Source of the DNA: Anaerolineae bacterium
GTDB lineage: Bacteria; Chloroflexota; Anaerolineae; Epilineales; Epilineaceae
NCBI GenBank assembly: GCA_034432155.1
Contig: DAOUCP010000035.1
Location: 83,036 to 147,035, forward strand
DNA length: 64,000 nucleotides
Direction of reading: 5' to 3'
Below the pieces are notes generated by a model. It worked only from the letters and a program-made list of their open reading frames with translations. It was not told the DNA's origin and did not search any database. This document shows positions 11,201 to 53,228 of this stretch, piece after piece; the stretch's first letter is position 1, and each line of letters starts with the position of its first letter. The position numbers and the translations under genes are program-made.

Positions 11201-11624
11201 CCTCGCGAATTTCGCCGATGTCGCCGGTGCGCTGGATGCCATCCCCTTCGATGCCGCGCCCGACAACGCGTTTATCTTCAGTCCGCAAGGGGCGATTTCG
11301 GCCGGCCCGGACCGATTCCACCTTGCCAGCGACGAGCTGGGATACCGCCTGGATCAGTGGACGGTGCCGATGAGCTGGGGATCCCAGACCACGCAGGCCA
11401 TCCAGAGGGTCAACGGGGCACCGCTGGCCGGTCAGCGAATCCTGGCCCTCTATCCGCAGAATGTGCCCGGCGACGGGGACATGCAGCTTCTGGCCATTCT
11501 AGAGGAGGAGGCGCCGACGCCGACGCCCATCGCCTTCCCGACCGACGAGCCGCCAGACCGCGACCACGACATCTTCCTGCCGGCAGCCCTGGTCAACGAG
11601 GTCATTGGCGTGGCCTCACCCTAG
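8274..11624 (+). CDS. Secreted S8 subtilisin-like serine protease B, paralog of A (I9 + S8 + PA)
   Basis: The track ORF 7809 overlaps protease A. The in-frame ATG at 8274 (MHRILRLAIRALALAAPLALA) gives a signal peptide with GGAGG 9 nt upstream. Motifs IAIIDQGIDYTH, HGTHVAGIAAG, GTSMAAPLVAGGAAVL. PA domain GQVALIERGTCSFSEKVANATAKGAVAALVFNNQPG. Long collinear identity to A. Confidence 0.85.
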   Translation: MHRILRLAIRALALAAPLALARPALAIQLPAVADSSLRAILTWPPSDGQQPMAVIVELRGPTTFDLVRRSAHKLGAGTVLATAARDAAFATVAAAQAPARRYVEATGAQIISTYDTALNGFLVRATPAQLERLAATPGIARIYRAPEHYPLLGDAVPLVGGQQVVESLGYTGKNVTIAIIDQGIDYTHKSLGGRGRTQDYANNNPSVVEPGSFPTDKVIGGYDFAGTDYGATGVPRPDDDPLDEGDHGTHVAGIAAGMKGNPKVHHGVAPDAKLIALKVFGRGGGTNLSTDAIEWAIEANLGATVPGSCQMPGGQQCRVDVLNMSLGSPWANGVLEQTGAVQRAVEAGIVLVAASGNDDDVPFIHGAPSASPMALAVANTFHGGLKGDVVEATVGSQTVQLEALQGGTDATGQLRLGKAMDEVGEIKAPLADFGRGCTADQPSAPEVTGQVALIERGTCSFSEKVANATAKGAVAALVFNNQPGILVMGPTAGFQADDIPAYLIRQEDGLALREQLRSVAVRIRMAKALNGTFVRSYLADVIGPGSSRGPARSGAFKPNISAPGTEIVAPKRAQGDAGIAFSGTSMAAPLVAGGAAVLIERLRAEGLAPKDAPLADPNQVTAADVAALLMNYATAHVYRDDNRLPDYVPLARQGSGRMNLLAAAKGHTLARAGYLAEIDFGIRGLVEDYTDSATVTIRNLSRETRSYDLSTEFNTPGKANRGVRYDVTPASLVLEPGASAEVRVQASVATALLAPFGAYGGARALQSGPIGDAEIDGFVVVTSRVEGGEPEVSHLPIYFLPRRAAAVVASPDPLRISPTTGSGTIVWQNNAPGDGVAELFAHLGSDALGEAPPRLDVDHVGARLGVDSQGRRMVSLAVHTQAARRVPIDSDTFVLIDANRDGTYDQAAHVGLVNGVLVTAVQQVTRQEPLAFSRQAVADFEADVNIESGIVILHVLASRIGVDESGPVRIDLGVLHLANFADVAGALDAIPFDAAPDNAFIFSPQGAISAGPDRFHLASDELGYRLDQWTVPMSWGSQTTQAIQRVNGAPLAGQRILALYPQNVPGDGDMQLLAILEEEAPTPTPIAFPTDEPPDRDHDIFLPAALVNEVIGVASP

Positions 11625-15284: not shown

Positions 15285-15368
15285 GGCGGCAGCGCTCCGA
15301 ATGACTGCCAGCGATCTGCCGCGTCCCCGCCGACCGGCGGTGCCACGTTCTTCTGGGGAGCGAAGGCC

Positions 15369-18300: not shown

Positions 18301-19856
18301 TCGACTTCGGCGTCCGAACACGCGTGCCGGACGTGCCCCGTGGCGCCTTGGACCACGCCACCGTAGTGGCTTCCGATGGACGTGCCAGCTCCGCCGTCAG
18401 TCTTACGCTGACCGCATCTCGACTGGCCCCCCTCTTGCTCGTCGACGGCGACTTCTTCTACCAGAGCGAGGACCGGTACGTGGCCGGGCTCCGGCGGCTC
18501 GGCCTGGCATACGACCACTGGGAGCTCGGACTCTTGCGCCATGCGCCTGACATTCCGTCGGCGGCCGATCTGGCCGCCTATCCGGCGGTCATCTGGTTCA
18601 CGGGCTACGACTGGCGGCCCGACGGCAGCCTCAACCTCGACGGCCAGCGCGCCCTGGCCACGTACCTGGGAGCGGGCGGTCGGCTGCTGTTTTCCAGCGA
18701 AGACTACTTACTGATTCGTGCTACCACCCCATACACCGCCGACCGGCTGTTTCACGCCGATTTTCTGGGCGTCGCCGGCTACGCCATCGATGACGGACAA
18801 GCCCACCAGGGTCCCCTGCGCGGGGCGAAGGAGAGCATCTTGGCCGGCCTCGATGGCTGCCGTCTGCCGCTGCGCAGTCCAAGAGATGACCTCAGCGACG
18901 CGCTCGTGCCTAGACCCGAGGCTCGGCCAGCGCTGCTGGATGGCGCCGGTCAGGCCGTCGGCCTGGAGGTGGCCGTCCCACCGTTCAAGTCCCTGTTCCT
19001 GGCGCTTGACCTGGGCCTCATGGATTCGGAGTGCAGCGCCGAGATCATCCGGCGCGCGGTGGACTGGTTCAGCCCCATGCATCCAAGCTCCCTCCAGGTG
19101 GCGGATGGCCGTCTCGTCCTTGCGGGCGGCGACGACGTGCGCCTCGACTTGAAGCTGTGCAACGAAGGCCGGCAGGTGGCCTCCGGGGTGGCCGTTCACT
19201 GGGATCTGCCACCCAGCACAACGGTTACGGCGCCACCCGCGGACTGGGATTTCCTGCCGCCACGAACCCTGCGCTGGACCGGTTCGCTGGCTGCCAGCGA
19301 GCGGCGCCTCGTCACCACAGAGCTGCGTCTGGCCGACGACGTGCCGCCCAACAGCCACCTGCAGACCTCGGTGGCCATCACGGACCCGCAGGGGCTGCCC
19401 CTGCGCCGCAGCCTCAGCCTGCGAGCCAATGCCCCCGATCTGGCGCCCTCGCACAAGGCCGTCCATACCGGCCAGAGTCCACCTGCATTCGGCGAGCTGG
19501 CGACGTTCACCATCGTCGTCCGCAACTCGGGAACGCGCATCGCAAGCGCCGTGGCCGTCACCGATTGGCTGCCCAGCGGGCTGCGCCTGGTACCCCAATC
19601 GGTCCACGTCGACAGCGGTGAGGCGGCGGTAGGCGCCGATGGCCGCAGCCTGGTTTGGCATACCTCGGTGGCACCGGGGCGTGTCGCGGCCGTGTCGTAC
19701 GATGCGCGGGTGGTTACATCCGCTGGCGGACGTCTTCGCAACGTGGCGTTGGTGCGCGATGAATCGGGCACCGAGGTGTGGCTCAGCTCCGAACTGGCAG
19801 CGCAGGCGCGGTTGCCGCTCCCCTGCCTGCTCGTGGGGAGTGCGCCCGGCCGCTGA
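15369..19856 (+). CDS. Giant secreted multidomain S8 protease C (I9 + S8 + two beta-sandwich domains + two ThuA/GATase1-like domains + DUF11-like domain)
   Basis: TTG start with GGGGAG RBS. Signal peptide RLWRAVLGGLLLLTVAVWPLAEA. Motifs VTIAVLDTGVDVHHPSL, HGTHVAGTAVGG, GTSMAAPHVSGVIALL. Two ThuA-like segments (YDIVVWSHHT...GGRLFLTGQD and YPAVIWFTGYDW...GGRLLFSSED) follow. A C-terminal DUF11-like region ATFTIVVRNSGTRIASAVAVTDWLPSGL follows. Confidence 0.8.
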   Translation: MPQPSPHPVSSRFRLWRAVLGGLLLLTVAVWPLAEAHSRAVAGLVRPPAVADHRAADRSPTAARTLPGGRGPRAVVDPALRRELAHAGERHIPVIVHLALPEKSEPAASSGNALTSLQARPLAFARYAQPLLAYLERERQAGRIGRVTSLWLANAVAVTVAPAALPDLAAAPGVRFLALDGSLHLEPWQSLGADPGRAAESPPPWNIRAVRADEVWRLFGIDGSGVTIAVLDTGVDVHHPSLRTRYRGYLSGGFRNRGNWWCRPEDPLCGFGNAYPVDSIGHGTHVAGTAVGGDGIGVAPGAHWIAARVCADVTCQVSWIIEGLQWLLAPGGASDLRPDIVNLSLGNEDSDGSLVLKNSIDALTAAGIVVVASAGNRAGTVTEPASYPNVIAVGAVDSSLRRWPQSGYGSTLWQQNKPELMAPGVAITSAIPGGGLGVKTGTSMAAPHVSGVIALLKQAKPDLTPATVAVILKRTATAVGPIQPNAQSGWGLVNAYAAVATVGEVGFVRGRVTRLDGTAIPWARIGLHELGGGALATVEVDEDGKYELAVRPGVYSLTAEAFAFGPRTERPVTVQKDETSQVDFVLEPLPSVGQFAGWVYARRGSQRIPMAARLELLNVPSEFALRSNPDTGFSAQLPAGRYTVRIRELGYRILTDTVTITAGATITRSYELDPAPRILLVDGDAWLYRPAIDRFRQALDRTGYPFDEWPVIDDSAGPGADGGPPRLEDLQRYDIVVWSHHTSSPGTVNAAEVLDKYLAAGGRLFLTGQDILCLDGGSDAGSDACNRQPQQHPYVERRLRSRVVRDNSGSLTIMGTPSGLLSGLRLTLNGPDSADNQVAPDVLRPLDPLAAAPIATYEGGGDAGMQVGPCAAGRAVIFGFGFEGIAGARLRDQVMARVIEGLWRAEPPNRLRLRADLDRRSADVGRTLSFTVTLRNVSTLSATVDIRLANHAWPWTLWQAGFDKPLGEPLTLGGCAQVDFGVRTRVPDVPRGALDHATVVASDGRASSAVSLTLTASRLAPLLLVDGDFFYQSEDRYVAGLRRLGLAYDHWELGLLRHAPDIPSAADLAAYPAVIWFTGYDWRPDGSLNLDGQRALATYLGAGGRLLFSSEDYLLIRATTPYTADRLFHADFLGVAGYAIDDGQAHQGPLRGAKESILAGLDGCRLPLRSPRDDLSDALVPRPEARPALLDGAGQAVGLEVAVPPFKSLFLALDLGLMDSECSAEIIRRAVDWFSPMHPSSLQVADGRLVLAGGDDVRLDLKLCNEGRQVASGVAVHWDLPPSTTVTAPPADWDFLPPRTLRWTGSLAASERRLVTTELRLADDVPPNSHLQTSVAITDPQGLPLRRSLSLRANAPDLAPSHKAVHTGQSPPAFGELATFTIVVRNSGTRIASAVAVTDWLPSGLRLVPQSVHVDSGEAAVGADGRSLVWHTSVAPGRVAAVSYDARVVTSAGGRLRNVALVRDESGTEVWLSSELAAQARLPLPCLLVGSAPGR

Positions 19857-37334: not shown

Positions 37335-39947
37335 TCACCACACTGCCACCTCGCCGAGGATCACCGCCCTCGTTGCCGGTTTGGCGCCGGGACCGCGCAC
37401 CGGCCACCGTTCGCCAGTCTGTGCCTCGTACACCCCGATCTCCACCGTGTAGGCACCCGGCGGCGCCGAATCGGGCACCCGCAACAGGTGTCGATCGAAG
37501 ACAACGGCTCCCGCAGGCCTCCCTCCTTCCTGCCAGGGCCACCGTCCCCCGGAGGGTGGCCCATCCTGGCCCGCCCACAGGAGGCTGCCCTCGGGCCCGT
37601 GGGGCGGCCCCAATAGATGGGCAAACACCAGCGGCGATCCGGCGGGAGACATTGCCCGCCCAGGCAATGTCCAGCACAGATCGACAACCACGGCTCCGCC
37701 CGCACGCACCCGGTGCGGCACGATCCGCCCGGAGTGCAGCACCATCGGGCCGACGTGTACCGCCTCGCCAGCTCGCGCGCCACTGCACGGCGGTCCCGAC
37801 AAGGCTGGGTTTTCGCGCACCGCCACTTCGCCACTGGCCGCACATTCGGGCTGGCCCCTCGCCGTGAGGGCCTCGACGGTGGCCCGCCAGTGCAAGCGCC
37901 CGCCCGGCAACCGGTCGTCGACGCTGAGTTGAAGCGGCAAGCGCAGCCAAGCCGGCGCGCTCGGCAGGGGACCATTCGCCGCATCGCCGGCCATTACTTC
38001 GGACACCGCCAGTACCGACTGGCCGACGGGGACGGTCATGGCCGCTGGGGAGGCGAAGAGCTCGAGACGCGCCACGTCACCCTTGCGCAGCCCCGAGGCA
38101 AAGACGCTAACGTACAGCGTGTCCCCGGGCCGAGCAGCACGGCTGGCGAAGCCCACCAGGGGCGCCATGCGAGGCCCGGACCTCGTCCTTGGGGCGGCCT
38201 CCTGTAACCTCGATCGCTCCGTTTCGGCATGCGCAGTGCTGGCGATCATCGTGCCGGGAAAGCGACTTGACAGTCCGGTGGTGAGAGGTCGAAGGCCGTC
38301 GGAGGCATAGAGGTGCAGGGCATCGGCGCCGTAGCCCTCGCTCAACACCCGCGGCAGCCGGCGCGTCAGCCAGGCCTCGACTTCGCGCCCGGGATCCTGT
38401 AGTTCGCGTCCCCACTCCACGAGCCAGACCCTGCGATGCTCCCGCGCCAATCGAGCTAGTTCGTTTTGCCACGCCGTCTCGCCGAGCATGTCGCTGCCCC
38501 GGCTGGGGAACTCGACCACCATCGGCCGATCGGCCCAGGCGGGCGGTGACTCGGCCGGTAGCTCGAACGAAGGCCGGTTCCAGGGTTGCACCCACGCCCG
38601 ATCGTAGTAGTAGCGAAAGAGCGGATAGCGGTTGCCGCTCACCAGGAGGACCACGTCGTCCGGTCTGGCCTGACTCCAGATGGCCAGCACCATGGCGTAG
38701 GGATCGGCCTGCAGCCGTCGCGCGGTGTAATGACTTGGCAGACTGACAAGCCCCGGGCCAAACAGGCACAGCGCAGCGGCAAGCCCTACTGGCCGGTGGG
38801 CTCGCACCAGCCGAGCCAGACCCCATGCCAGAAGCGCATAGACGGGCACGAGGAAGGGCACAAAGTAGCGCGCTTCGACGCGGGGGGTGTAGAACACCGA
38901 TCGAGGCTGGGCGACGCCCCAGATGACGAGGGGCGCCAGAACGAGGAGGCCTCCCGCGAGCAGGAAGGCCCCAGGCGGTCCGGCCGGTGCCGCGGTGGCT
39001 GGGCCTACCTTGCCCATGGGGGCAGATCGCCTTAGCAAGGGATAGGCCAGGGCCGCAATCGCCGCGCTGCCACCCAACCAGAAGACCGCCGTCGCTGCGC
39101 GGCAATCGTTTAGCTCCGTCGATCGCCCGGTCGCCAGGAGTGTCAACCATAGCTGGGCGACGAAGCCCAGCCTGGGCGCCGGCTCCGGCAGGCGCCAGCT
39201 GGCCATCCGCGGCACGGCATAGGCAAGCCAGGGCGCGAAGGCCAACGCCAAACCCGCCAGGCCCGTCAGCCAGGCAACGAACCACTGCCGGGAGGTGCGC
39301 CGGCGGAGCAGGACGAGCCACGTCGCAGCGGCAAGCCAGGTCACCATCAGGGCCGCCAGGTAGACGCTATACAGCGCCGCCAGCGATCCCGCGACTGCCG
39401 CCAGCCATCCCCCGTTCCAGGGCCTTCCCGCCCTGCGCTGCGCAGCCGAGAGCCAGCAGATAGCGCCATAGGTCGCCCAGGCAATCGCCAAGGCGGCCAG
39501 CATGTACATTCGCAGCTCCATGGACCACCACACGGCAAACCGGGAGGTGGCAACCAGTGCCAGGGCGAATCCTCCGGCCAGCCGACCACCAAGGCGTCTT
39601 GCGAGGGCCCAGGCCATCACCGCGCTCAGCACACCCGCGATGACGCTTAGGTAGCGCAAGGCGAATTCCGTCTCTCCGACCAGTCGCTGCCAGGGCCAAA
39701 GCGCCCAGAAGAACAGGGGAGGATGGACGTCGCTTGCCGTCCAGGCGGTCATCTCGCTCCAGGGCTTGCGGACCGCCCAGACGGCCAAGGCCTCGTCCCA
39801 CCAGACGTTGGCGTCGCCCAGGCGAACCAGGCGCACGAGGAACGCCAGCCCGACAAGGAGCAGAGGCAGCCACCGCCCCTCGGTTCGCGCCGCGCCCACG
39901 GCAACCGTCAGTCCGCCCTGGCGGTCCGTGGCCGTCGCCGCAGCCAT
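37335..39947 (-). CDS. Polytopic membrane glycosyltransferase, GT39/GT83 (PMT_2-like), paralog of 30910-33348
   Basis: WWDEALAVWAV...DVHPPLFFW loop-1 motif. Many TM helices. Large C-terminal domain. The start is uncertain: the track ORF extends to 40004 and overlaps the upstream GH gene. Confidence 0.7.
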   Translation of the reverse strand: MAAATATDRQGGLTVAVGAARTEGRWLPLLLVGLAFLVRLVRLGDANVWWDEALAVWAVRKPWSEMTAWTASDVHPPLFFWALWPWQRLVGETEFALRYLSVIAGVLSAVMAWALARRLGGRLAGGFALALVATSRFAVWWSMELRMYMLAALAIAWATYGAICWLSAAQRRAGRPWNGGWLAAVAGSLAALYSVYLAALMVTWLAAATWLVLLRRRTSRQWFVAWLTGLAGLALAFAPWLAYAVPRMASWRLPEPAPRLGFVAQLWLTLLATGRSTELNDCRAATAVFWLGGSAAIAALAYPLLRRSAPMGKVGPATAAPAGPPGAFLLAGGLLVLAPLVIWGVAQPRSVFYTPRVEARYFVPFLVPVYALLAWGLARLVRAHRPVGLAAALCLFGPGLVSLPSHYTARRLQADPYAMVLAIWSQARPDDVVLLVSGNRYPLFRYYYDRAWVQPWNRPSFELPAESPPAWADRPMVVEFPSRGSDMLGETAWQNELARLAREHRRVWLVEWGRELQDPGREVEAWLTRRLPRVLSEGYGADALHLYASDGLRPLTTGLSSRFPGTMIASTAHAETERSRLQEAAPRTRSGPRMAPLVGFASRAARPGDTLYVSVFASGLRKGDVARLELFASPAAMTVPVGQSVLAVSEVMAGDAANGPLPSAPAWLRLPLQLSVDDRLPGGRLHWRATVEALTARGQPECAASGEVAVRENPALSGPPCSGARAGEAVHVGPMVLHSGRIVPHRVRAGGAVVVDLCWTLPGRAMSPAGSPLVFAHLLGPPHGPEGSLLWAGQDGPPSGGRWPWQEGGRPAGAVVFDRHLLRVPDSAPPGAYTVEIGVYEAQTGERWPVRGPGAKPATRAVILGEVAVW

Positions 39948-41656
39948 CCTAGCCCGGTCAAGGCGACGACGAGCGCAGACAGCAATGCCCACGCGGCAAT
40001 CCAAAGCGGCCTGAGGGGCGAGGGCGGCGGGAGGCCAGTGACGTGCACCGCCGCCAGGGTGAGCTGGCCCGCGTCGACCCGCAGCTTGACCGCGTGCTCG
40101 CCGGGTGCCAGAGGGGCAACCACCAGCTGTTTCCGGTCGGCGAGCGCCTGGATGGCCGCCGAGCGGACCTCCTGGTCGACCACCAGGTACAATTCCGGTG
40201 GCGGGGCTTCCGCGGCTGGCCCCAGGTCGAGCCGAAACCCGCTGCCGGCGAAGCTAAACTGGAGCTCGGCGTCCGGTAGCCCAACCCGGACCGGCGCCCC
40301 GCCTGGCCCTTGTGCCTCTTGCCACGGCCCGGCGTAGACAAGTCCCCAGTCATCGGGCCAATGAACGCCCGCCGCCAAGACGACCGGACGCCGGCGGGCC
40401 AGCTCCTGCAACGCCCCGAAGACCGGCAGCTCCACCCAATCGGGTTCGACCAGCCGGAAGTAGCCCTCGGGTCGCTGATGCCACTCGAAATCGGGCCGAC
40501 GGAAGAACCAGACGAAGGCCGGGCCGATCCAGGGCCACTCACGGCCAATGCGCTCGTAGGCGGCCACGGTGTAGCGGGCCCGAGTCGCCTCGGTCACTCG
40601 CCCGTAGGGCGCCGGCAATTCCTTGGGCGGGCTGTCCCAGCCCATTTCGGTAATCCAGACTGGCTTATGGGCATCGCCATGACGCACCATGATGTCACGC
40701 GCCAACAGCGGCCGCACGAAATTGGTTCGCTCGCGGCTCACTCGACAGTCTGTCGGACCGGTCCATAGGCCGAAGGCCTGGACAGCCAGGACATCGAAGT
40801 CATCGGCCCAGCCTGCCTCGTAGAGCGCCTCCAGGTAGGCCAGGTCGTCCATGTTGCGCCCGCCCGCTTCGGTCGTCTGCGCCAAGGCGGCGCTGACGAT
40901 CACCACGCCCGGGCATGCCCCACGGGCTCGCTTGGCCGCCAACGCGAGCAGACGGGCGTAGCCGGCTGGATCCACGTCACGCTCGCCCCACTCGGGGTAG
41001 ATGTTCGGCTCGTTCCAGATTTGGTAGTAGCGGATTCGCCCGCAATAGCGTCCCACCACCGTGGCGACGAAATTGCCGAAGTCGCGCCAGTCGTCCGGGG
41101 GGCCCTTCTCCCCGGAGGCCGCAGGATCGGCAAATGCCCAGTCCGGAGGGTTGTCGAGTCGGACGAGAAGCTCGAGATGATGGTCGCGCGCCAAGTCCAC
41201 GATGCGGTCGTACTTCTCCCAAGCCACACGCGGCGGGTCGTTGCGGCGGTCGAGGAAGTCCCCCCGCCCGTGGATCTCGATGTCCTCCCACGGGAACTCT
41301 TGCCGCACCCAGCCAAACCCGGCGTCCTTGATGAGGGCAAGCGAGCGACGAACGTTCTCCGGCTCGACCTCCAACTGCAGGAAAGTGTTCACGCCAAACG
41401 GATTCGACCCGCGGTGGGCCAGGACGTCATCCGGCGCCAAGGCAAGCTCGGGCCCCTGGCGCTCGATCTGAACGAGAGCGATGAGGCCCTTCACACCCTC
41501 CCAGACGTTCTCCTCGCCTGTGACGCGCCACAAGTAGCTGCGGCTGGGCGGCGACAGGACGACCAGCACCCCCAGCGCGACGGCGCCACCGAGCGTCAGG
41601 ACAAGACGGCGGCCACGCACGAGCGCCGATTCTAGGCGTTCGACGTCGTGCCGCAA
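39908..41656 (-). CDS. Membrane-anchored glycoside hydrolase, clan GH-A (GH5-like)
   Basis: Catalytic acid/base context YYQIWNEPNI and nucleophile context VWITEMGWDS. N-terminal TM VLTLGGAVALGVLVVL and C-terminal hydrophobic segment + RRRPR tail. Confidence 0.65.
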   Translation of the reverse strand: MRHDVERLESALVRGRRLVLTLGGAVALGVLVVLSPPSRSYLWRVTGEENVWEGVKGLIALVQIERQGPELALAPDDVLAHRGSNPFGVNTFLQLEVEPENVRRSLALIKDAGFGWVRQEFPWEDIEIHGRGDFLDRRNDPPRVAWEKYDRIVDLARDHHLELLVRLDNPPDWAFADPAASGEKGPPDDWRDFGNFVATVVGRYCGRIRYYQIWNEPNIYPEWGERDVDPAGYARLLALAAKRARGACPGVVIVSAALAQTTEAGGRNMDDLAYLEALYEAGWADDFDVLAVQAFGLWTGPTDCRVSRERTNFVRPLLARDIMVRHGDAHKPVWITEMGWDSPPKELPAPYGRVTEATRARYTVAAYERIGREWPWIGPAFVWFFRRPDFEWHQRPEGYFRLVEPDWVELPVFGALQELARRRPVVLAAGVHWPDDWGLVYAGPWQEAQGPGGAPVRVGLPDAELQFSFAGSGFRLDLGPAAEAPPPELYLVVDQEVRSAAIQALADRKQLVVAPLAPGEHAVKLRVDAGQLTLAAVHVTGLPPPSPLRPLWIAAWALLSALVVALTGLGWLRRRPRTARAD

Positions 41657-41745: not shown

Positions 41746-41940
41746 ATGACGGTGGAACTGAAGCCCGGCGAGAGCTTTGAGAGCCTGCTCAAACGCTTCC
41801 GCAAGGAAGTGTCCAAAGCGCGCATCCTAAGTACGTACCGGCGCAAGCGCTGGTTCACCCCACTCAGCGAAGAGCGTCGCCTGGCCAAGAAGAAGGCCGA
41901 GCGCCGCGCCCGTCGGCGATTGCTGCGCAGCAGTCCCTAA
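41746..41940 (+). CDS. rpsU: 30S ribosomal protein S21
   Basis: 64 aa: ...ESLLKRFRKEVSKARILSTYRRKRWFTPLSEERRLAKKKA.., diagnostic of S21. Confidence 0.85.
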   Translation: MTVELKPGESFESLLKRFRKEVSKARILSTYRRKRWFTPLSEERRLAKKKAERRARRRLLRSSP

Positions 41941-42001: not shown

Positions 42002-42043
42002 CGCCACCCGTCGTCAGGCACGGCGGGTGGCGTTGTTCTCTTG
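42002..42043. terminator. Rho-independent terminator between convergent rpsU and the dnaI-like gene
   Basis: Stem cgccacccg / cgggtggcg with a 13-nt loop, followed by ttgttctcttg. Confidence 0.6.
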
Positions 42044-42073: not shown

Positions 42074-43567
42074 TCACCGTGGTCGGCCGCGTCGGGCAGG
42101 CGGCGGACGGTCGGCGTACGATTCGTAGTACGCTGGCGCGATGATCTCGAAGATGGTGCATAGCCGGGTGTCCAACATGCGCGATCGCAAGCGCGCCGGC
42201 ACCTCTTCGAGCCGCAGGGCCATGGTGATCACCGTCGCCAGCCGCGCTGCATAGCGGTAGTTCAGGATCTGGAAGAGCTTCTCCTTTGCCCAAGGGGTCG
42301 CACTCTCAACCCCCAGATCGTCCAGCACCAGAAGCGGGGTCGAGCGGACCTCGTCGAAGCGACGATCGTATTGCACGCGGCTTGTCGGGCTATAGGTAGC
42401 TCGCAGGTGATCGAGAAGGTCGGGCACCACCACGAAGAGCGCTGGCGCACCTACGGCGACTCGCTGATTGGCGATCGCCGCCGCCAGGTGCGTCTTGCCG
42501 CAGCCATGCTGGCCCATGAAGACCAGCCAGCCACTCGGGGCCGCAGCAAACTGGCGCGCCAGCTCGAATGCCCGCTGGGCGTTCTCGGCTAGCTCGCGCC
42601 GCAGCACCGTCGCCCGGCTGTCCCAGCTTTCGAACGTCAAGCCACGATAGAGGTGAAGAGTTGAGAGCTCGGTGCCCTGGTCAGCCGTTCCGGCGCGGAA
42701 ATCGAGGGCGCGGATCTCCACCGCTCGCACCAGGCCGACGTGGCACAGTCGAGAGCGAATCCGGTCGTCGAGATCCTCCAGCCGGCAGTTGGTGGTCACC
42801 ACGGTGGGCAAACGATTGTTGTACCGATGGTTGAGCAGTTGGTACAGCTTCTCCGCCGCCCACGGCGTCGGCGCTTGAGCCCCCAGGTCGTCCAGGACCA
42901 GCAGTGGTACCTCGCGCACCGCTTCGAAGCGGTCCTCGTAGCTGTCGGCACTATCATCGGCAAAGGTGGCGCGCAGCTCATCGAGCAGATCCGGCAGCAC
43001 AACAAAGAGTGCTGGCAGGCCCCTGCGGAGTCGCTCATTCACGATTGCCGCCGCGAGATGCGACTTGCCACAGCCATAGCCGCCCCGCAAGAGTAGCCAG
43101 CCCGACGGGTTGGCGGCGAACTCCCGCGCTGCCTCGAAGGCCGCCCGGAGACTGAGGACCTGGTCGGGCGAGTTGCCCGGCGCCTCCACCTGGAAGGTCT
43201 CGAAGGTCATCTCGGCGAGGGCGGCCATCTGAGCGAAGCTGCGCACCGACTCCAGCTCACGACGAGCCAGCTCGTCAGCCATGCACCGGCAAGGCACCGC
43301 TTCGCTGAAGCGCGGGTCGTCGAGCGGCACATCGAACGTCACGTAGCCGATGCCACCGCAAATGGGGCACACTTCGTCTGCGGCAGCCGGCGCACCAACG
43401 CCCGAGGCGGCAGGGGCACGTGTCGCCGTGGCCTGGGGGCCAGCCGTCGCCGGCGAGCGGTCCGGCTCGTCGTCGGCAGGCTTTCGGCTAGCGCCGGATG
43501 TAGCGGCCGAATGGGCCCTCCTCAGTTCTTCGGCCCGTCGCTTCGCCAAGTCGCCGATCGGCTTCAT
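42074..43567 (-). CDS. DnaI/DnaC-like helicase loader with N-terminal Zn-ribbon and TWO tandem AAA+ modules
   Basis: Zn ribbon CPICGG...CRC. Module 1: Walker A GGYGCGKSHLAAAI, Walker B LLVLDDLGAQ, sensor VVTTN. Module 2: Walker A GQHGCGKTHLAAAI, Walker B LLVLDDLGVE, sensor replaced by TVITMA. Likely start is M6 (43567) with GGAGG 8 nt upstream. Confidence 0.7.
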   Translation of the reverse strand: MKPIGDLAKRRAEELRRAHSAATSGASRKPADDEPDRSPATAGPQATATRAPAASGVGAPAAADEVCPICGGIGYVTFDVPLDDPRFSEAVPCRCMADELARRELESVRSFAQMAALAEMTFETFQVEAPGNSPDQVLSLRAAFEAAREFAANPSGWLLLRGGYGCGKSHLAAAIVNERLRRGLPALFVVLPDLLDELRATFADDSADSYEDRFEAVREVPLLVLDDLGAQAPTPWAAEKLYQLLNHRYNNRLPTVVTTNCRLEDLDDRIRSRLCHVGLVRAVEIRALDFRAGTADQGTELSTLHLYRGLTFESWDSRATVLRRELAENAQRAFELARQFAAAPSGWLVFMGQHGCGKTHLAAAIANQRVAVGAPALFVVVPDLLDHLRATYSPTSRVQYDRRFDEVRSTPLLVLDDLGVESATPWAKEKLFQILNYRYAARLATVITMALRLEEVPARLRSRMLDTRLCTIFEIIAPAYYESYADRPPPARRGRPR

Positions 43568-44210
43568 CCTCGTTTCCTCCACGGCCTTCGCGGCCCCATC
43601 GTTCTAAGACGCGGCGGACATACGACCACTTGCGGACGTTGTTGACCACCGCCATCTGGATCGCGTCTTCGATCCACCTCTCCGGATAGGTCGCGGCGGC
43701 ATCCCGCAATTCGTCGGCCATCATCGGGGTGAGAAGACCGATGTTGTCCTCATAGAGCGCAAAGATGTTGGGGCGTCCATCCACACCCTCGCCTGCCGAC
43801 GGCCACACGGGCAGGGTCAGCCCGCCGTCGCGCCAGCGTTGATACAGCGCCCGACCCTGTCGGCAGTTCACGAACAGCCAGCGCTGGGGGCCGGTCTCGC
43901 TCGCGACCTCAGCGGTCAGACACAGGCCCCGATCGACAAGGCAATCGATGGCCGCCGTGACCGCTTCCGCGACTTGCTCCTCGGCCACCCCCAGCGAGCG
44001 CGCCCCCCGCCGCAGCACCGGGTCGAGCACCAGATCCGCCAAGCGCAAGGCCGCTGGCACCCCTCGCGGCCGTCGATGCAAGCGCCACACGAGGTGCAAG
44101 AAGGCCTTGATGGCCAGCGGATCCTCGAGCTCGGGCAGGTAGCGACTGAAGAACAGGTCCGGCACGGGGGTCCAGCGCGCACCGTCTGGGAAGCCACGCC
44201 GGCGAGGCAT
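43488..44210 (-). CDS. DnaD-domain replication initiation/primosome protein
   Basis: C-terminal DnaD-like domain NIFALYEDNIGLLTPMMADELRDAAATYPERWIEDAIQMAVVNNVRKWSYVRRVLERW. Start ATG at 44210 overlaps the dnaB stop (TGATG). Confidence 0.65.
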   Translation of the reverse strand: MPRRRGFPDGARWTPVPDLFFSRYLPELEDPLAIKAFLHLVWRLHRRPRGVPAALRLADLVLDPVLRRGARSLGVAEEQVAEAVTAAIDCLVDRGLCLTAEVASETGPQRWLFVNCRQGRALYQRWRDGGLTLPVWPSAGEGVDGRPNIFALYEDNIGLLTPMMADELRDAAATYPERWIEDAIQMAVVNNVRKWSYVRRVLERWGREGRGGNEDEADRRLGEATGRRTEEGPFGRYIRR

Positions 44211-45565
44211 CAGAACGGGACCTTCTCGGGCGGAGGGGCAGCCGGGACATCCTCGAACAGCGTCTCCTTGCCGACGAAAACGAGCGGCACCGTGCACGTC
44301 TTGCCGTGACGATGCTTGGCAATGTGCACCTGACAAAGCTGACTGTCGTCCTGCTCCGTGCTGGCGTTGGGTTCAGTATCGCGGTCGAGGAAAATCACAA
44401 TGTCCGCGTCCTGCTCGATGCTGCCCGAATCCCGCAAGTCGGAGAGCAGCGGCGCCTTGCTTTTCCGATGTTCGATCGCGCGCGACAGTTGGCTGGCGGC
44501 GATGACCGGCACGTTCAGCTCGCGTGCCAGCGCCTTCAGCGATCGTGAGATCAGACTGATCTCCTGGACCCGGTTCTCGAACGACCGCCCGCCGTGCATG
44601 AGCTGCAAGTAGTCGATGCACACGAGGTCGACTCGCTCGCGGTCGTGCAGCTGACGAACCTTCGTGCGGAGTTCGAACGGCGTAAGCCCGGCGGTATCGT
44701 CGATGTAGAGCGGCATCTCCGCGAGCTCCGCAATGTTGCGCAGCACCAAGTCGAAATCCGACTCGGAGCCGAACCGACCGTTGCGAAGCTCACTGACCGG
44801 GATATGGGTGCGCCCCGAAATCAGCCGCAACAGAAGTTGCTCGCCGGCCATTTCCAGACTGAACACGGCCACCGTGTGGCCCTGGGTGGCGGCGTGGGTG
44901 GCCACTGTCAGCAGCCAGCTGGTCTTGCCGGTACCCGGCCGCCCGGCAATGATGACCAGATCGGAGCCGTGCAGCCCTCCCAGCGCCACGTCCAGCTTCC
45001 GGAAGCCAGTCTGCACGCCGCGCGGCACGTGGCGCTGCTCGCGCGATTGCTCCAGCCTCTCGTGGAAATCCTCCACCAGGCGCACAATGGGCACCAGGTC
45101 CCGCCGGCCCTGACGCTCGCTCACCCGAAACAGCAACTCCTGGGCTTGGTCGATCAGCTCTTGCGACGTGCACTGGCGCCGGGTGTACGCTAGCTCGGCG
45201 ATTCCGTCGGCAGTGGCGATGAGGCGACGGCGCAGCGCCTCGTTCTCGACCATCCCCGCGTAGTGGTCAACGTGGGCGGAGGTCGGCGTTCGCGTGATCA
45301 GCTCCGTGAGGTAGGCTTCGCCACCGACCTCAGCCAACTGCCCCCTCCGCTCCAGCTCCCACTGGACGGTCATGGTGTCGATCGGCTCCTGGCGCTCGTA
45401 CAGGGCCGTTATGGCACGGTAGATCTTGGCGTGGGCGGGGCGCGAGAAGTCTTCCGGCTGAAGCTTGGCCGCGACCCGAAGTACTGCCGTGGGATCGAGC
45501 AGGAGGGCTCCTAGAACGGATTCTTCCGCCTCGACGTTGGCCGGGGCCAGCCTGTCGGTCAGCAT
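44210..45565 (-). CDS. dnaB: Replicative DNA helicase DnaB
   Basis: N-domain EESVLGALLLDP. Walker A GRPGTGKTS, Walker B/H3 VCIDYLQLM, H4 SRSLKALARELNVPVIAASQLSR. The ATG at 45565 is the only in-frame start downstream of the BFN stop. Confidence 0.9.
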   Translation of the reverse strand: MLTDRLAPANVEAEESVLGALLLDPTAVLRVAAKLQPEDFSRPAHAKIYRAITALYERQEPIDTMTVQWELERRGQLAEVGGEAYLTELITRTPTSAHVDHYAGMVENEALRRRLIATADGIAELAYTRRQCTSQELIDQAQELLFRVSERQGRRDLVPIVRLVEDFHERLEQSREQRHVPRGVQTGFRKLDVALGGLHGSDLVIIAGRPGTGKTSWLLTVATHAATQGHTVAVFSLEMAGEQLLLRLISGRTHIPVSELRNGRFGSESDFDLVLRNIAELAEMPLYIDDTAGLTPFELRTKVRQLHDRERVDLVCIDYLQLMHGGRSFENRVQEISLISRSLKALARELNVPVIAASQLSRAIEHRKSKAPLLSDLRDSGSIEQDADIVIFLDRDTEPNASTEQDDSQLCQVHIAKHRHGKTCTVPLVFVGKETLFEDVPAAPPPEKVPF

Positions 45566-45626
45566 GCGCGTGCAACCTTCTTGCCCTCCGAGGCAGTCCC
45601 GGAAGGCGGGGAGAAAACGATGAGGC

Positions 45627-46145
45627 TTAGGTCGGCTCGTCCGACTCGTCACCCAGGTCGAGATCGAGCTCTTCGATGAAGTCGCGGAACACCTGGAGCT
45701 GATCGTCCTCGTCGCCTCGCTCCGGCTGCTCCTCCTCGTCCTCGGTGATCACCTGGCCGGCACGGTCCATCACGTCCTCGCTCACCAGGATCGGCACCTC
45801 GGCGCGAACGGCCAGTGCGATGGCGTCACTGGGACGGGAATCGACTTCGATCACCTCGCCGTCGCGGCGGAGGATGATCCGGGCGTAGAACGTTTCCTCG
45901 CGCAAGTCGCTCACCTCGATGCGCTCCACCGCTGCCCCTAAGTGCCCCACGAGGCCGCACAACAGGTCGTGCGTCATCGGCCGGCCCACTTGGGTGCGGT
46001 GCAGCCCCATGGTGATCGCCTCGGCCTCGAAGGGACCGATCCAGATCGGCAGGTAACGGGGGCCGCTCGCTTCGCGCAACACCACCAGCCGTTGCTGCTG
46101 ATTCATCAGGCTGACGCGAACACTCTCAACCACGACTTCGATCAT
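45627..46145 (-). CDS. Bifunctional nuclease domain protein (DUF151/BFN)
   Basis: VVLREASGPRYLPIWIGPFEAEAI...THDLL matches the BFN domain. Acidic C-tail. GGAGG RBS 7 nt upstream. First gene of the BFN-dnaB-dnaD-dnaI string. Confidence 0.75.
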   Translation of the reverse strand: MIEVVVESVRVSLMNQQQRLVVLREASGPRYLPIWIGPFEAEAITMGLHRTQVGRPMTHDLLCGLVGHLGAAVERIEVSDLREETFYARIILRRDGEVIEVDSRPSDAIALAVRAEVPILVSEDVMDRAGQVITEDEEEQPERGDEDDQLQVFRDFIEELDLDLGDESDEPT

Positions 46146-46185: not shown

Positions 46186-46195
46186 CATTATAGCA
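46186..46195 (-). promoter_or_regulatory. Extended -10 (TGcTATAAT) on the minus strand, upstream of the BFN-dnaB operon
   Basis: Plus-strand ccattatagcac reads as GTGCTATAATGG on the minus strand, about 40 nt upstream of the BFN ATG. A similar GTGCTATACT lies at about 47786-47797 upstream of the TlpA-like gene. Confidence 0.35.
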
Positions 46196-46401
46196 CCCCC
46201 TCGGGTGGTGCCCAACGCTCCTCCGGCGACTGGTAGGACGCGGCACCGCGGCCTATAATCGGGCTTTCGGTGCTTCGGCTTTCCGTACGGCCCGCTCTGC
46301 CCCGGGGCGGCCAGAGGGACAGCCGTCACGGGGCCGGCCCGTCCGCAAGACGTGCCGACCCAAGCCCCATTCCGGCAGACAACGCCAGTCAGGAGAACAG
46401 C

Positions 46402-46844: not shown

Positions 46845-47630
46845 CTACGGCGGGCTGGCGGTGCCAGCAAGCCCCAACAGGCGGCGGACCTTGAGCTCGA
46901 GAGTGGCCCCGTTGGGGAACATGCCCGTGTGCAGGTCAACGACGGTACCCGAGGGATCCACGAAGTACGTTGCTGGCAGGCCGGCCACTGAGTAAGCGCG
47001 CTGCACTTCAATGCTGCTGTCCAAGTCGCCGAACAGGACGGGGAACGTCAGGGCCATCATCTCCACGAACGCAGAGACGGTGGCCGCGGCCCTGTCCTGG
47101 CTCACCTTCTCACCCGCGTTGACAGCCAGGACCTCCAGGCCCTGGTCCCGATAGGCATCGTAGACGGCCTGAATCCACGGCATCTCATGACGACAGGGTG
47201 GGCACCACGTCGCCCAGAAGTTGATCATGATCGGTTTGCCGGCCAGGTCGCGCAAGGTCACCGATTCCTCAGTCCCCAAGCGGGGCATGGTGAAATCGGG
47301 AGCCGGGTGGTAGAGCAGCGGATGGGCTGGCACCGGCAGATCAAGCGCCTGACTGGAGCCTGGGCTCTCGTCGAAGAACGACGGCGGCAGCACATCGCCG
47401 CCCGAGGCACCTGGCACCACCAGACCTTGTCCAGCGGCGGAAGGAACCGCCGCCGAGGCCTGGCTGCCCGATGCCTGGGGCCCTGCCGCTGCCGTGCGAC
47501 GGTTCGACATCGCGCGGCCGGCGATGAAGCCGACCGCCAGCACAGCAATCCCCAGGAGCGACACGGCGATCGGCTGCCAGCCGATCACGATCACTCGCCC
47601 TTGGTCGTCGTGTCCGGTTTCGTCTGCCAA
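46845..47630 (-). CDS. Membrane-anchored thioredoxin-like thiol:disulfide oxidoreductase (TlpA/ResA family)
   Basis: Signal anchor QPIAVSLLGIAVLAVGFIAG. Trx domain with active site NFWATWCPPC. In-frame TTG at 47630 preceded by GAGAGG. The track ORF extends to 47987. Confidence 0.7.
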   Translation of the reverse strand: MADETGHDDQGRVIVIGWQPIAVSLLGIAVLAVGFIAGRAMSNRRTAAAGPQASGSQASAAVPSAAGQGLVVPGASGGDVLPPSFFDESPGSSQALDLPVPAHPLLYHPAPDFTMPRLGTEESVTLRDLAGKPIMINFWATWCPPCRHEMPWIQAVYDAYRDQGLEVLAVNAGEKVSQDRAAATVSAFVEMMALTFPVLFGDLDSSIEVQRAYSVAGLPATYFVDPSGTVVDLHTGMFPNGATLELKVRRLLGLAGTASPP

Positions 47631-47825
47631 CGTGACCCTCTCGGTCCAGCGGCTCGAGGATCTGAGACCTGGCCGACCAGCCCAACGCGATGCCACCGAG
47701 CGAAGCCCGCGAACCCCTGGCTGGGCCGCAGGCCGCCACGGGCACCATCTCGCCCCTAGGATCCCCGGCAAGCGGAAAACAGCGTCGCAGTATAGCACAG
47801 GGATCGGCGCTGGCGGACGGGCCAG

Positions 47826-47854
47826 TTGGTGGCGCGCTTGCCCGCGCCTATAAT
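47826..47854 (+). promoter_or_regulatory. Putative promoter: -35 TTGGTG, 17-nt spacer, -10 TATAAT (47849-47854)
   Basis: Upstream of the GTG at 47889; RBS GGAGA is present. Confidence 0.45.
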
Positions 47855-47888
47855 CGGCGGCACCGACTTTCCCTAGGAGATTCCTTTC

Positions 47889-48767
47889 GTGACAACGCGC
47901 CTCCTGGCCGTCGCGTGGTTCGCATTGCTCCTCGGCGGCTGCCAAGCCACGCAACCTCCGCCGGGCAACACCACGGCCGGTCCGCAAGCCATTGAGGCTC
48001 CCCGGCCTCAGACCGGCACCGACGCCGCCGGCAACCCCCAGATGGCTACGCCGGGCGACGACTCGGCGGCCGCGACCACCTCACTCGAGGAGCCGACCTC
48101 GGACGAGGCCATGGTGGCGGCGACGGGCCAGCCGGTTGGCGAAGCCCAAGCCAGCCCGGCCATCACCCAGACGGAAGCTACGCCCGATCCGACCATCGTT
48201 GCCCTGGCGGCCAGCTTCGAGTTCCCTCGGCAAGGGCGGGCGGACGCCCCGCTGCAGATCTACGAGTTCTCGGACTACCTCTGTCCCTACTGCCGGAAGC
48301 TGGCTTTGGAGACGGTGCCCAAGGTGGTCAAGGATTACGTGAATACCGGCCAGGCGGCCATCACCTTCGTCGATTTCCCGCTCGTACAGCTCCACGGCTA
48401 CACCACGCTGGTCTGTCATGAGGCGGCCCATTGCGCGGGCGAAGAAGGCAAGTACTGGCCGATGCACGACGCTATCTTCCGGCAGGCTGAAAAGCTGGAC
48501 GCGGTGGGTGCCACCGATGAGGCCGCTGCCAGGGCAGTCCTGGTAGCGATGGCCCGACCCGCCGGCGTCGATCCGGATCGCCTGCGCATCTGCCTCGAGT
48601 CCGGCAAGTACCGACCGATCGTCGCCTCCATCATGCAGGATGCTGCCAATCACGGCGTGGAGATGACCCCCACGCTCCTGGTGGGCGATCAGACGGTGCC
48701 TGGCTACGTGCCGTACGAGCAGTTGAAGGCGCTGATCGACGAGCAGCTGGCCAAACAGAAGCCGTGA
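47889..48767 (+). CDS. DsbA-like thioredoxin-fold lipoprotein
   Basis: Lipobox ALLLGGC. Pro/Thr-rich linker. DsbA domain with active site CPYC (EFSDYLCPYCRKL). Confidence 0.75.
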   Translation: MTTRLLAVAWFALLLGGCQATQPPPGNTTAGPQAIEAPRPQTGTDAAGNPQMATPGDDSAAATTSLEEPTSDEAMVAATGQPVGEAQASPAITQTEATPDPTIVALAASFEFPRQGRADAPLQIYEFSDYLCPYCRKLALETVPKVVKDYVNTGQAAITFVDFPLVQLHGYTTLVCHEAAHCAGEEGKYWPMHDAIFRQAEKLDAVGATDEAAARAVLVAMARPAGVDPDRLRICLESGKYRPIVASIMQDAANHGVEMTPTLLVGDQTVPGYVPYEQLKALIDEQLAKQKP

Positions 48768-48768: not shown

Positions 48769-50922
<2,154 letters not shown>

Positions 50923-50930: not shown

Positions 50931-51821
50931 CTACCACAAGCTCGCGGCCAGCAACGCCCGATACTGCTGCGTCAGCTCGTGGTCGTCGCCGAGAACGCGA
51001 AAGACATCCACCATCGCCGATCGTGCCTGGTCGGCGGCGGCGCGATCTTCCCCCTGGATCACCACCAGCAAGCCCTCCAACGCCTCACGATAGGCGCCAC
51101 GCGCCGCCAACGCAGTGGCCAGGGCTAGGCGGGCGGCAACATCCGTGGGATTGGCGGACAGTCGCCGCCGCGCATCCACCTCGCCACCCGTGAGCGAGCT
51201 ATCCCTGCGAAAGCGCGCCTGCGCCAGCCACATCTCGGCTTCCGCACGCTCCGGACTGCGCTGCGGGACCGCCTCCAGCAACTTCGCTGCTGCCTCATAG
51301 TGCTCCGTCTGGAAAAGCACCCGGCCCAGGCCCAGCATGGCAGCCGGATGGTCGCTCTGCTCGGCCAGCGCTCGCCGGTAGCCTGCTTCGGCGGCCTCGA
51401 GGTCGCCGGCCAACTCACGGTCGCGGGCCGCTTGCGCCAGCCGATCGGCGACGCTCGGCAAGAGGCCCTTCAAGAACTCACGGACGGCCGACTCGGGCTG
51501 GTAGCCCACGAACTCCGCCACTACCCGGCCGTTCCGAAAGGCCTTGACCGCCGGTATGCCCTGGATGCCCCACTGCTGAGCCAAACTCGGATGCTCGTCG
51601 GTGTTCACCTTGACCAGCAACCACTCGCCGTGCGCTTCCTGGGCCAAACGCTCGAGCACAGGTCCCAGCATGCGGCACGGCCCACACCACGATGCCCAGA
51701 AATCGACCACCACCGGCACCGACTTCGAGCGCCGCAGTACTTTCTCCGCAAAGTCGGCGGTTCCCACATGCTCGACGGCAGCGCCACGGGCGCTCACCGA
51801 ACTCTCCTTATGCACCACCAT
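50931..51821 (-). CDS. Thioredoxin fused to C-terminal TPR domain (CnoX/YbbN-like)
   Basis: FWASWCGPCR active site, followed by TPR-like helical repeats. Likely start MVVHKESS at 51821. Confidence 0.75.
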   Translation of the reverse strand: MVVHKESSVSARGAAVEHVGTADFAEKVLRRSKSVPVVVDFWASWCGPCRMLGPVLERLAQEAHGEWLLVKVNTDEHPSLAQQWGIQGIPAVKAFRNGRVVAEFVGYQPESAVREFLKGLLPSVADRLAQAARDRELAGDLEAAEAGYRRALAEQSDHPAAMLGLGRVLFQTEHYEAAAKLLEAVPQRSPERAEAEMWLAQARFRRDSSLTGGEVDARRRLSANPTDVAARLALATALAARGAYREALEGLLVVIQGEDRAAADQARSAMVDVFRVLGDDHELTQQYRALLAASLW

Positions 51822-51875
51822 CCTCCCATCGAGTCGCGAGCCGGATGTCGGCCGGTCCGCCGGGCCCAAGTATAG

Positions 51876-53228
<1,353 letters not shown>

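Follow-up and report, generated by a model that had tools for sequence, protein, structure and literature searches.

A putative helicase-loading operon of Chloroflexota encoding a tandem AAA+ protein whose second module lacks sensor 1

The window analysed here is a stretch of 64,000 nucleotides (nt) from an Anaerolineae bacterium (contig DAOUCP010000035.1, positions 83,036 to 147,035 of the forward strand), and coordinates are counted from its first letter. Its minus strand carries, between 42074 and 46145, four linked open reading frames (ORFs) in the order BFN/DUF151, dnaB, dnaD-like and a gene for a protein with a Zn ribbon and two AAA+ modules in tandem, which by homology to DnaC and DnaI is very probably the loader of the replicative helicase. 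An original prediction, made by a model from the letters alone, had placed four linked genes here with the BFN gene at the head of the operon, and all of the ORFs are present at those positions (lengths in amino acids, aa):

45627-46145, minus strand: gene for a BFN/DUF151 protein (bifunctional nuclease domain) of 172 aa, at the head of the operon (Pfam PF02577 BFN_dom, E 1e-40)
44210-45565, minus strand: gene for the replicative helicase DnaB, 451 aa from the likely start ATG at 45565 (TIGR00665 and Pfam)
43488-44210, minus strand: dnaD-like adaptor gene, 240 aa, start ATG at 44210 (PF07261, TIGR01446)
42074-43567, minus strand: gene for the putative tandem AAA+ helicase loader, 497 aa from the likely ATG at 43567, which GGAGGA precedes

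The operon and its products

The BFN ATG at 46145 is preceded by a Shine-Dalgarno sequence, GGAAGGAG. The longest dnaB ORF spans 44210-45652, from a GTG at 45652, and the longest dnaD-like ORF extends to 44336, with the actual start at ATG 44210, as confirmed by an NCBI protein of 240 aa (P0414) that is identical to the dnaD-like product. This ATG overlaps the dnaB stop codon in the predicted TGATG, which can be read at 44210 with the A common to both codons. At its longest the loader ORF has 502 aa (42074-43582, from a GTG at 43582), and the ATG at 43567 coincides with the M start of 59 homologues in the family alignment. The first 80 nt of the loader gene are at the same time the last of the dnaD-like gene (43488-43567, minus strand). 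Related loci were collected in a scan with one genome per GTDB species, in which the best 80 of 383 relatives were taken; overlaps at this junction are common among the 80 loci, and the overlap is 29 nt at loci L081 and L082. Because the loader start codon sits inside the 3′ end of the dnaD-like gene, the arrangement suggests that adaptor and loader are translationally coupled.

The DnaB product scores 486.5 bits against the TIGR00665 equivalog (cut-off 385.25), matches both PF00772 (the N-terminal domain) and PF03796 (DnaB_C), and falls below the cut-off for phage DnaB (388 vs 499). At 451 aa it has no intein. Inteins (Intein_splicing with or without LAGLIDADG) are present in the dnaB genes of related Chloroflexota (L057:2432-5173, L068:2286-5150, L012:3145-5274 and L082:2201-6115), and the Ktedonobacterales dnaB has two of them in a product of 1304 aa.

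The dnaD-like product has a putative N-terminal winged-helix-like domain followed by a C-terminal DnaB_2/DDBH2 domain, with scores of 27.8 against PF07261 (E 2e-6, cut-off 22) and 28.4 against TIGR01446 DnaD_dom (cut-off 24.95). Its assignment as DnaD-like, already proposed in the original prediction, is borne out by PF07261 matches in 31 of 31 aligned family members (best E 5e-15) and by its AlphaFold2 (AF2) model, which has a predicted local distance difference test score (pLDDT) of 85.9 and for which Foldseek ranks full-length DnaD first (9a5c_B, E 1.2e-4). Against the DnaD N-domain (2v79) the model reaches a probability of 0.89-0.93 and a template modelling score (TM) of 0.46-0.48, and generic winged-helix regulators score similarly. 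The protein is likely to have a two-domain architecture like that of DnaD, more tentatively so in its N-terminal half. At the head of the operon, the C-terminus of the BFN protein (45654-45701, minus strand) consists of an acidic linker followed by the motif L-(D/Q)-V-F-R-D-F-(I/V)-E-x-L-D-L-D, which is conserved across the BFN proteins of this operon and looks like a docking peptide.

The last gene was predicted to encode a Zn ribbon followed by two AAA+ modules, each with Walker A, Walker B and a box VII of the form RxRSR(L/M), and every one of the quoted motifs is present. The parts of the protein are listed below, with residue numbers that refer to the 502-aa longest ORF (minus 5 for the protein from the ATG):

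43505-43558, minus strand: predicted N-terminal helix IGDLAKRRAEELRRAHSA, then a disordered Ala/Pro-rich linker (AF2 helix 4-21 with pLDDT ~66-69; residues 19-63 with pLDDT <50)
43283-43369, minus strand: Zn ribbon CPICGG...CRC (CxxCxGxG knuckle and CxC; C72-x2-C75 ... C98-x-C100), presumed helicase-binding N-domain
42692-43219, minus strand: AAA+ module 1 (M1) with full canonical motifs (K173, D231-D232, N265 with its codon at 42788-42790, R274, R278, R296)
42644-42691, minus strand: inter-module linker GTADQGTELSTLHLYR, a low-confidence segment (AF2 pLDDT <50 for residues 293-298 of the 497-aa protein) and then a short helix homologous to the M1 lead-in
42128-42643, minus strand: AAA+ module 2 (M2), with K363, D421-D422 and R468 kept, Ala455 at sensor 1 (codon 42218-42220) and Tyr at the sensor-2 position

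The Pfam models IstB_IS21, Bac_DnaA and AAA each match two stretches of the loader, IstB_IS21 being the best by name, and an ungapped alignment of the two modules over 177 residues shows 51% identity (E 2e-61), far beyond chance. The AF2 model of the loader (pLDDT 83.7) contains the N-terminal helix, a disordered linker and the small Zn ribbon, after which come two AAA+ cores that have the same topology. The fold of the AAA+ core is closest to DnaA domain III, DnaC and IstB and clearly set apart from other clades, as for members of the initiator clade. This clade is marked by a two-helix insert that separates strand 2 from the Walker B strand, strand 3, and the insert is predicted in both modules of the AF2 model (M1: strand 187-190, helices 191-200 and 210-218, strand 223-228; M2: strand 377-380, helices 381-390 and 400-409, strand 412-418). 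To judge from its sequence, the protein is a loader of DnaC/DnaI design, in which an N-terminal helix and Zn ribbon are followed by an initiator-clade AAA+ module that has been duplicated in tandem.

Four Zn-ribbon cysteines are kept in 185-197 of 201 homologues. The N-terminal region gave no match to solved structures in a single-sequence search, and a 21-sequence profile of this region gave only a weak match, to the CxxCxGxG fingers of DnaJ (E 0.009), and none to the DnaI N-domain. The CxxC-x13-H spacing is presumably similar to that of the DnaI N-domain, a likeness that falls short of established homology.

The best NCBIfam model for each module alone is PRK08116 (uncharacterised DnaC-like ATPases; cut-off 189), with IstB, DnaI and PRK06835 next at similar, lower scores. 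The single modules score 124 and 111 and the whole loader 232.5, which is above the cut-off because the two module scores add up. In searches of solved structures with either module, DnaI 2w58, E. coli DnaC 6qel, B. subtilis DnaI 4m4w, S. aureus DnaI and Aquifex DnaC come ahead of IstB. M2 therefore does not align better to IstB-type transposition helpers, which the original prediction had named as a ground for refutation; its best structures are E. coli DnaC and DnaI.

DnaI (of B. subtilis, G. kaustophilus and S. aureus) resembles the loader in its layout, in which a Zn-binding N-terminal region precedes an AAA+ module of the initiator clade, with box VII and with 'DD' at Walker B, and DnaI 2w58 is the best or second-best solved-structure match of both modules (E 1e-17 and 2e-13). 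The DnaI gene, like the loader gene, adjoins a gene for a DnaD/DnaB_2-domain adaptor. The loader differs from DnaI in having two AAA+ modules per chain, the second without sensor 1, in the CxxCxGxG and CxC type of its Zn ribbon, and in belonging to an operon with only one DnaD-type adaptor.

Conservation of the tandem architecture and loss of sensor 1

The best 120 database homologues are 383-600 aa long with 76-99% query coverage, from which all of them are tandem. They derive from NCBI, JGI, ENA and Logan assemblies, and those with names are from Chloroflexota, Anaerolineae and Ardenticatenales. At the genome level, the best 80 of the 383 relatives are all Chloroflexota; labels of metagenome-assembled genomes (MAGs) among them include Anaerolineales, Caldilineales, Litorilinea, Bellilinea and Candidatus Epilinea, and the isolates Thermanaerothrix solaris and T. 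daxensis are among them too. A further search found the tandem loader in the isolate Ardenticatena maritima as well (ARMA_1552). An adjacent dnaD-like gene is found at 80 of the 80 loci, dnaB at 71 and BFN at 68; gene order and strand are constant, and the misses fall mostly at contig ends. Conservation of the fusion in related genomes, which the original prediction had proposed as a check, is thus evident, and the locus belongs almost certainly to a conserved family of tandem loaders.

The operon can nevertheless be split, as seen from two loci (L006:1-6100 and L026) that have the dnaD-like and loader pair and in which BLAST with the window proteins found neither dnaB nor BFN in the 5-6 kb upstream.

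The original prediction had itself suspected that the gene might be an artefact, in which two adjacent paralogues are joined by a sequencing error or a stop or frameshift between the modules has been missed. The reading frame is unbroken between the modules in the window, with no stop and no frameshift, and the same fusion recurs in the best 120 homologues, in the isolate genomes, in hundreds of proteins altogether and in 80 genomes that share the operon. That faulty assembly or annotation produced the tandem gene is therefore extremely improbable, and we regard this reading as refuted by the conservation of the fusion.

When 196 homologues were split into their modules, the nearest neighbour of M1 was the M1 of another species in 195 of 196 cases and that of M2 was another M2 in 196 of 196 (391 of 392 together). 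Mean identities are 61% between M1 modules, 61% between M2 modules and 53% between M1 and M2, and both copies are under equally strong constraint. This pattern of relatedness shows that the duplication is old, and one duplication is clear within the Anaerolineae-type set.

The state of each ATPase motif was counted over 201 homologous sequences, where a denominator below 201 is the number of residues aligned at that column:

Walker A Lys: M1 201/201; M2 196/196
Walker B Asp-Asp: M1 200/200; M2 199/199
Box VII Arg finger: M1 R278, 196/196; M2 R468, 201/201
Sensor-1 Asn: M1 195/196; M2 0/201 (Ala 101, Ser 72, Val 10, Thr 9, Gly 2)
Arg coupler, four residues before the finger: M1 R274, 196/196; M2 R464, Arg 150, Trp 26 and Lys 23 of 201
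Sensor-2 Arg: M1 invariant (D294-[FY]-R296); M2 119/201, with Tyr in the window protein

In the window protein box VII reads RIRSRL in M1 and RLRSRM in M2, and sensor 1 reads TVVTTN(265) in M1 against TVITMA(455) in M2. The lack of the sensor-1 Asn from M2, which the original prediction had noticed in this one protein, proves to be family-wide. A screen of the 170 aligned columns of the AAA+ core for positions at which the ancestral residue is present in at least 80% of M1, at least 70% of single-module relatives and at most 10% of M2 returned exactly one, sensor 1. Since it is the sole column returned, the loss is specific and does not reflect a general decay; the sensor-2 position lies just outside of the 170-column core.

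The active site of E. coli DnaC has been mapped to Walker A K112, Walker B E170, sensor 1 N203, Arg coupler R216, Arg finger R220 and sensor 2 R237, with K143/F146/S177/Y179 as the tetrad that contacts single-stranded DNA (ssDNA), and among active-site mutants the sensor-1 change N203A abolishes ATPase activity and has the worst loading defect (Puri et al. 2021, PMC8213410). In a HMMER alignment to this protein A455 of M2 lies opposite N203, and the R274-x3-R278 spacing of M1 reproduces R216/R220. Equivalents of the ssDNA tetrad (R204/R394, F-or-Y 207/397, T-or-S 239/429 and W241/W431) are invariant or nearly so in both modules. DnaC (E. coli, Aquifex aeolicus) thus shares with the loader the coupler and finger spacing and the tetrad, but its AAA+ module is single, its Walker B reads 'DE' and it is without a Zn ribbon. 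M2 would be the natural equivalent of the ATPase-dead N203A protein: from the loss of sensor 1 (and of sensor 2 in the window protein), taken with the published DnaC mutagenesis, it is probably a binding-only site that holds ATP and hydrolyses it poorly or not at all.

To place the tandem proteins in a wider family we used the Zn ribbon together with M1 as the query against 1.84 billion representative proteins, which gave 721 matches at E <=1e-30. Among the best 150 of these, 96 have two modules, 52 have one, one has three (P0130) and one has four (P0129). P0129 (827 aa; on two contigs, the longest of 64 kb) has a Zn ribbon, three M1-like modules with the sensor-1 Asn and a last M2-like module without it, and P0130 (792 aa) has one Zn ribbon and three modules, in all of which Asp-Gly replaces the Walker B Asp-Asp. 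The complete single-module relatives share with the tandem loader the Zn ribbon, the AAA+ subfamily, the C-terminal 'AP-D-Y-R' tail and the operon, are 46-52% identical to the query, and differ in having one fully canonical module (Walker A Lys 29/29, Asp-Asp 29/29, sensor-1 Asn 28/29, Arg 29/29). Those with names are Ktedonobacterales or unclassified Chloroflexota. In the Ktedonobacterales genome GCA_021324535.1 (L082) dnaB is followed by a gene for a DnaB_2 protein and a one-module loader gene with the same overlapping junction, with no BFN upstream of dnaB in this one genome examined. Because the operon order and junction are the same in Ktedonobacterales, the tandem loader is the positional orthologue of an ordinary one-module loader.

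The Ktedonobacterales one-module loaders carry an Ala/Pro/Ser-rich low-complexity extension of 150-300 residues before the Zn ribbon, for which there is no Pfam match; loaders with this long extension include P0216, P0219, P0225 and P0300, and those at L081:3947-5557 and L082:7001-8611.

More divergent tandems, with within-protein identities of 25-50%, are found in a Dehalococcoidia MAG and in marine Chloroflexota, and the tandem design spans at least two major classes of the phylum. In this broader tandem set the Walker A Lys is invariant in both modules and the Arg finger is present in 80/85 M1 and 79/82 M2 modules; the sensor-1 Asn is present in 50/85 M1 and 9/82 M2. In a neighbour-joining tree of the modules of 150 representative proteins, M1, M2 and single modules do not fall into clean clades. 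When modules are scored against M1 and M2 profiles, the M1 profile fits better for all M1 and all single modules, and M2 modules shift on average by ~18 bits toward the M2 profile, although some divergent ones do not. The Dehalococcoidia-type tandems may or may not share the duplication event of the Anaerolineae type.

In a minority of the divergent tandem loaders, namely P0177, P0235, P0278 and their relatives (including a marine Tara Chloroflexota cluster), it is the second module that is nearer to the canonical single form and the first that is more degenerate. P0177 reverses the window arrangement, its second module keeping the sensor-1 Asn and its first being without it.

Chromosomal setting of the operon

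Three features flank the operon at its two ends:

46187-46214, minus strand: promoter-like sequence ~40 nt upstream of the BFN ATG, TGGGCA-16 nt-TATAAT extended by TG (consensus match only, 10/12)
42002-42032, no strand assigned: hairpin rich in G+C, its stem 13 bp long, in the gap that separates the loader stop codon from the convergent rpsU; a possible bidirectional terminator
41746-41940, plus strand: rpsU (Pfam Ribosomal_S21)

Promoter-like sites of this kind number 2 in the region against 0.5 expected from shuffles, and the count of terminator-like sites is not above shuffle expectation. The neighbours of the operon in the window are housekeeping genes, namely rpsU, an NAD-dependent DNA ligase gene, a GMP-synthase-like (guaA-like) gene and genes of the thioredoxin family. 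There is no IstA transposase or phage gene near the operon in the window, and G+C content is flat across the operon region.

These neighbours bear on whether the loader might belong to a mobile element or prophage, as an IstB-type helper or a phage DnaC, rather than to the chromosome. Such an origin could be read from the best Pfam model being named IstB_IS21, from the JGI label of the neighbouring protein ('DnaD/phage-associated family protein') and from the argument that the dna[CI] genes of bacteria have phage ancestors (Brezellec et al., PMC5109545). IstB lacks the Arg coupler that DnaC and DnaA have (PMC8213410), but the coupler is present in the loader, which has neither an IstA partner nor a transposon context and scores 145.6 against the IstB equivalog cut-off of 200. 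The DnaB passes TIGR00665 and fails the phage model, and the four-gene order is stable in 80 genomes of several orders. An identity as IstB or as part of a mobile element is accordingly very unlikely, and we reject it on the scores, the neighbours and the stability of the operon. The locus is a chromosomal replication operon, native to Chloroflexota rather than peculiar to the source genome.

Elsewhere in the window, the LigA gene (48772-50922, minus strand) lies separately 2.6 kb upstream of the operon and is flanked by three genes of the thioredoxin/redoxin/DsbA family (46848-47987, minus strand; 47889-48764, plus strand; 50934-51920, minus strand). Four very large ORFs of ~1260-1520 aa, with coding-like G+C at third codon positions, occupy 474-11624 and 15285-19856 (plus strand). 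A 582-aa ORF at 39911-41656 (minus strand) adjoins a PMT_2-type glycosyltransferase gene (37338-40004) and has no Pfam match at E <=1e-5. Rfam and tRNA scans of the window gave no matches.

Arrangement of the modules on DnaB

Taken as a whole, the locus is in our view probably a chromosomal helicase-loading operon, with a loader that is a covalent asymmetric pair in which M1 is live and M2 is dead. The built-in dimer with one probably dead subunit that the original prediction envisaged is in this sense a reasonable proposal, and a two-layer arrangement is compatible with the data as well. The DnaD-like protein would recruit the system to the origin opened by DnaA, and the Zn-ribbon domain would hold DnaB. 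With ATP, the AAA+ modules would assemble head to tail into a DnaC-like spiral that opens or assembles the DnaB ring, with the R / F-or-Y / T / W tetrad of both modules gripping ssDNA. M1, in which every catalytic element is present, would be the hydrolysing site, and M2 would contribute ATP binding through Walker A and Walker B, donation of its Arg finger, and DNA binding.

How many chains act on one helicase is a more tentative matter. In a crystal structure at 7.5 Å, DnaI on the DnaB hexamer forms a trimer of asymmetric dimers (PMC3791466), and because of this trimer and of the three- and four-module variants we favour consecutive protomers in one spiral. By analogy with DnaI, three chains might surround one DnaB hexamer with six modules in which live sites alternate with dead ones, an arrangement that we suggest with reserve. 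The fuller proposal, that Chloroflexota encode consecutive protomers of the loader spiral in one polypeptide and that in the two-module form three chains, each a covalent asymmetric dimer, serve one DnaB hexamer with live and dead sites in alternation, is somewhat more doubtful still.

Several observations weigh against this interpretation. The loader is below the cut-offs of the DnaI equivalog NF006505 (139.1 vs 228) and of the DnaC equivalog NF005931 (120.2 vs 357). Because of these scores and of a Zn ribbon without a match to the DnaI N-domain, it is DnaI-like in design and not a DnaI orthologue. The placement of M1 relative to M2 in the AF2 model is of moderate confidence (predicted TM score, pTM, 0.58; linker pLDDT <50), and the Ser found at sensor 1 in 72 of 201 M2 modules could keep some sensor-1 function. 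Three chains, moreover, would give only three helicase-binding domains per DnaB hexamer. M1 is complete in cis and in trans (R274 and R278 both 196/196), whereas constraint on M2 is relaxed in cis (sensors 1 and 2) and, in part, also in trans (R464 in 150/201); if the box VII of M1 served the dead site, lesser constraint upon it would be expected. In the wider family the sensor-1 Asn of M1 tracks the coupler of M1 (Fisher p 8e-8) more tightly than that of M2 (p 0.004). By these measures of conservation, homotypic M1-M1 and M2-M2 contacts fit at least as well as alternating ones.

Homotypic contacts would arise if six chains sat on each DnaB hexamer in layers, M1 forming a hydrolysing spiral and M2 a second, ATP-held and non-hydrolysing spiral or an extension of the filament along ssDNA, like the non-hydrolysing ring of NSF. 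The M1 set of cis and trans residues, invariant where that of M2 is relaxed in both, speaks for these layers, as does the strong co-variation of the M1 sensor 1 with the Arg coupler of its own module. Six helicase-binding domains, with one Zn ribbon per DnaB subunit, would equal the six sites used by DnaC, and the tetrad in both modules is expected if ssDNA threads both layers. The co-variation is confounded, however, by whole-module decay, which would give the same result and from which homotypic contacts are inseparable in this test. AAA+ proteins of the initiator clade are known as single spirals, and the three- and four-module variants are more readily explained by successive protomers within a single filament than by a stack of three or four layers. 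We consider the layered arrangement possible but rather doubtful.

M2 might instead be an internal regulator, which would dock on M1 as long as the protein is free and prevent self-assembly until released by DnaB or DNA, a built-in counterpart of the auto-inhibition and viral inhibition of S. aureus DnaI. In the S. aureus system, auto-inhibition by the DnaI linker has reportedly been described. M2 keeps the Arg finger, needed to dock on the ATP site of a neighbour, and has lost elements for hydrolysis; AF2 also yields one compact model, of moderate pTM. A phage protein reportedly binds the AAA+ domain of S. aureus DnaI and thereby inhibits it (PMC4887207). A plug would not need an invariant Walker A and Walker B or the full ssDNA tetrad, however, and conservation of M2 between species equals that of M1. 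A regulatory M2 is thus unlikely to be the whole account, although it is compatible with a covalent pair of one live and one dead module and does not exclude it.

Two AAA+ modules per polypeptide are also found in type II proteins such as NSF, p97/Cdc48 and ClpB, in which one ring is often specialised for nucleotide-dependent assembly rather than turnover. The placement of the modules in the loader model is unlike theirs (TM ~0.2) and the duplications are independent; we therefore reject a p97-like stacked tandem ATPase, p97- and NSF-type structures aligning at TM ~0.2. A structure search with the AF2 model found no PDB chain that matches both modules of the loader at once. A further analogy is with the clamp loader and with ORC/Cdc6, where live and dead ATP sites are combined in one ring-loading spiral (discussed in part in PMC8213410). 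The subunits of those complexes are separate gene products of different families, whereas the asymmetry of the loader lies within one chain and arose by internal duplication.

The presence of dnaC/I genes in Chloroflexi has been published: every surveyed genome has dna[CI] and no dciA, with one dna[CI] gene each and three in Herpetosiphon, and a single domestication event was inferred for the phylum, with no mention of a duplicated module (Brezellec et al. 2016, PMC5109545). A tandem DnaC/DnaI loader was not found in full-text literature searches of incomplete coverage, which is absence of evidence only; the statement in the original prediction that no fused double loader had been described is in keeping with this, and the tandem architecture of a DnaC/DnaI-type loader appears to be undescribed. 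It is a variant architecture of a known type of loader and not a new class of mechanism. The tandem proteins are already in databases as 'DNA replication protein DnaC', 'ATP-binding protein', 'AAA family ATPase' or 'IstB-like', automatic names that hide the tandem architecture.

The loading of bacterial helicases is understood nearly entirely from E. coli DnaC and Bacillus DnaI, and both the number of loader ATP sites that fire and the action of loader dimers are debated. The Chloroflexota family is a natural experiment in which two protomers have been fused and one catalytic residue has been removed from the second copy only, and the one-module orthologues in the same operon of sister lineages provide a built-in control. 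Loader stoichiometry and ATP use per site thereby become directly testable. If the alternating arrangement proposed here is true, a bacterial replicative helicase could be loaded with half of the usual hydrolysing sites and helicase-binding domains, and the 'trimer of dimers' in the low-resolution structure of DnaI would be a real functional unit.

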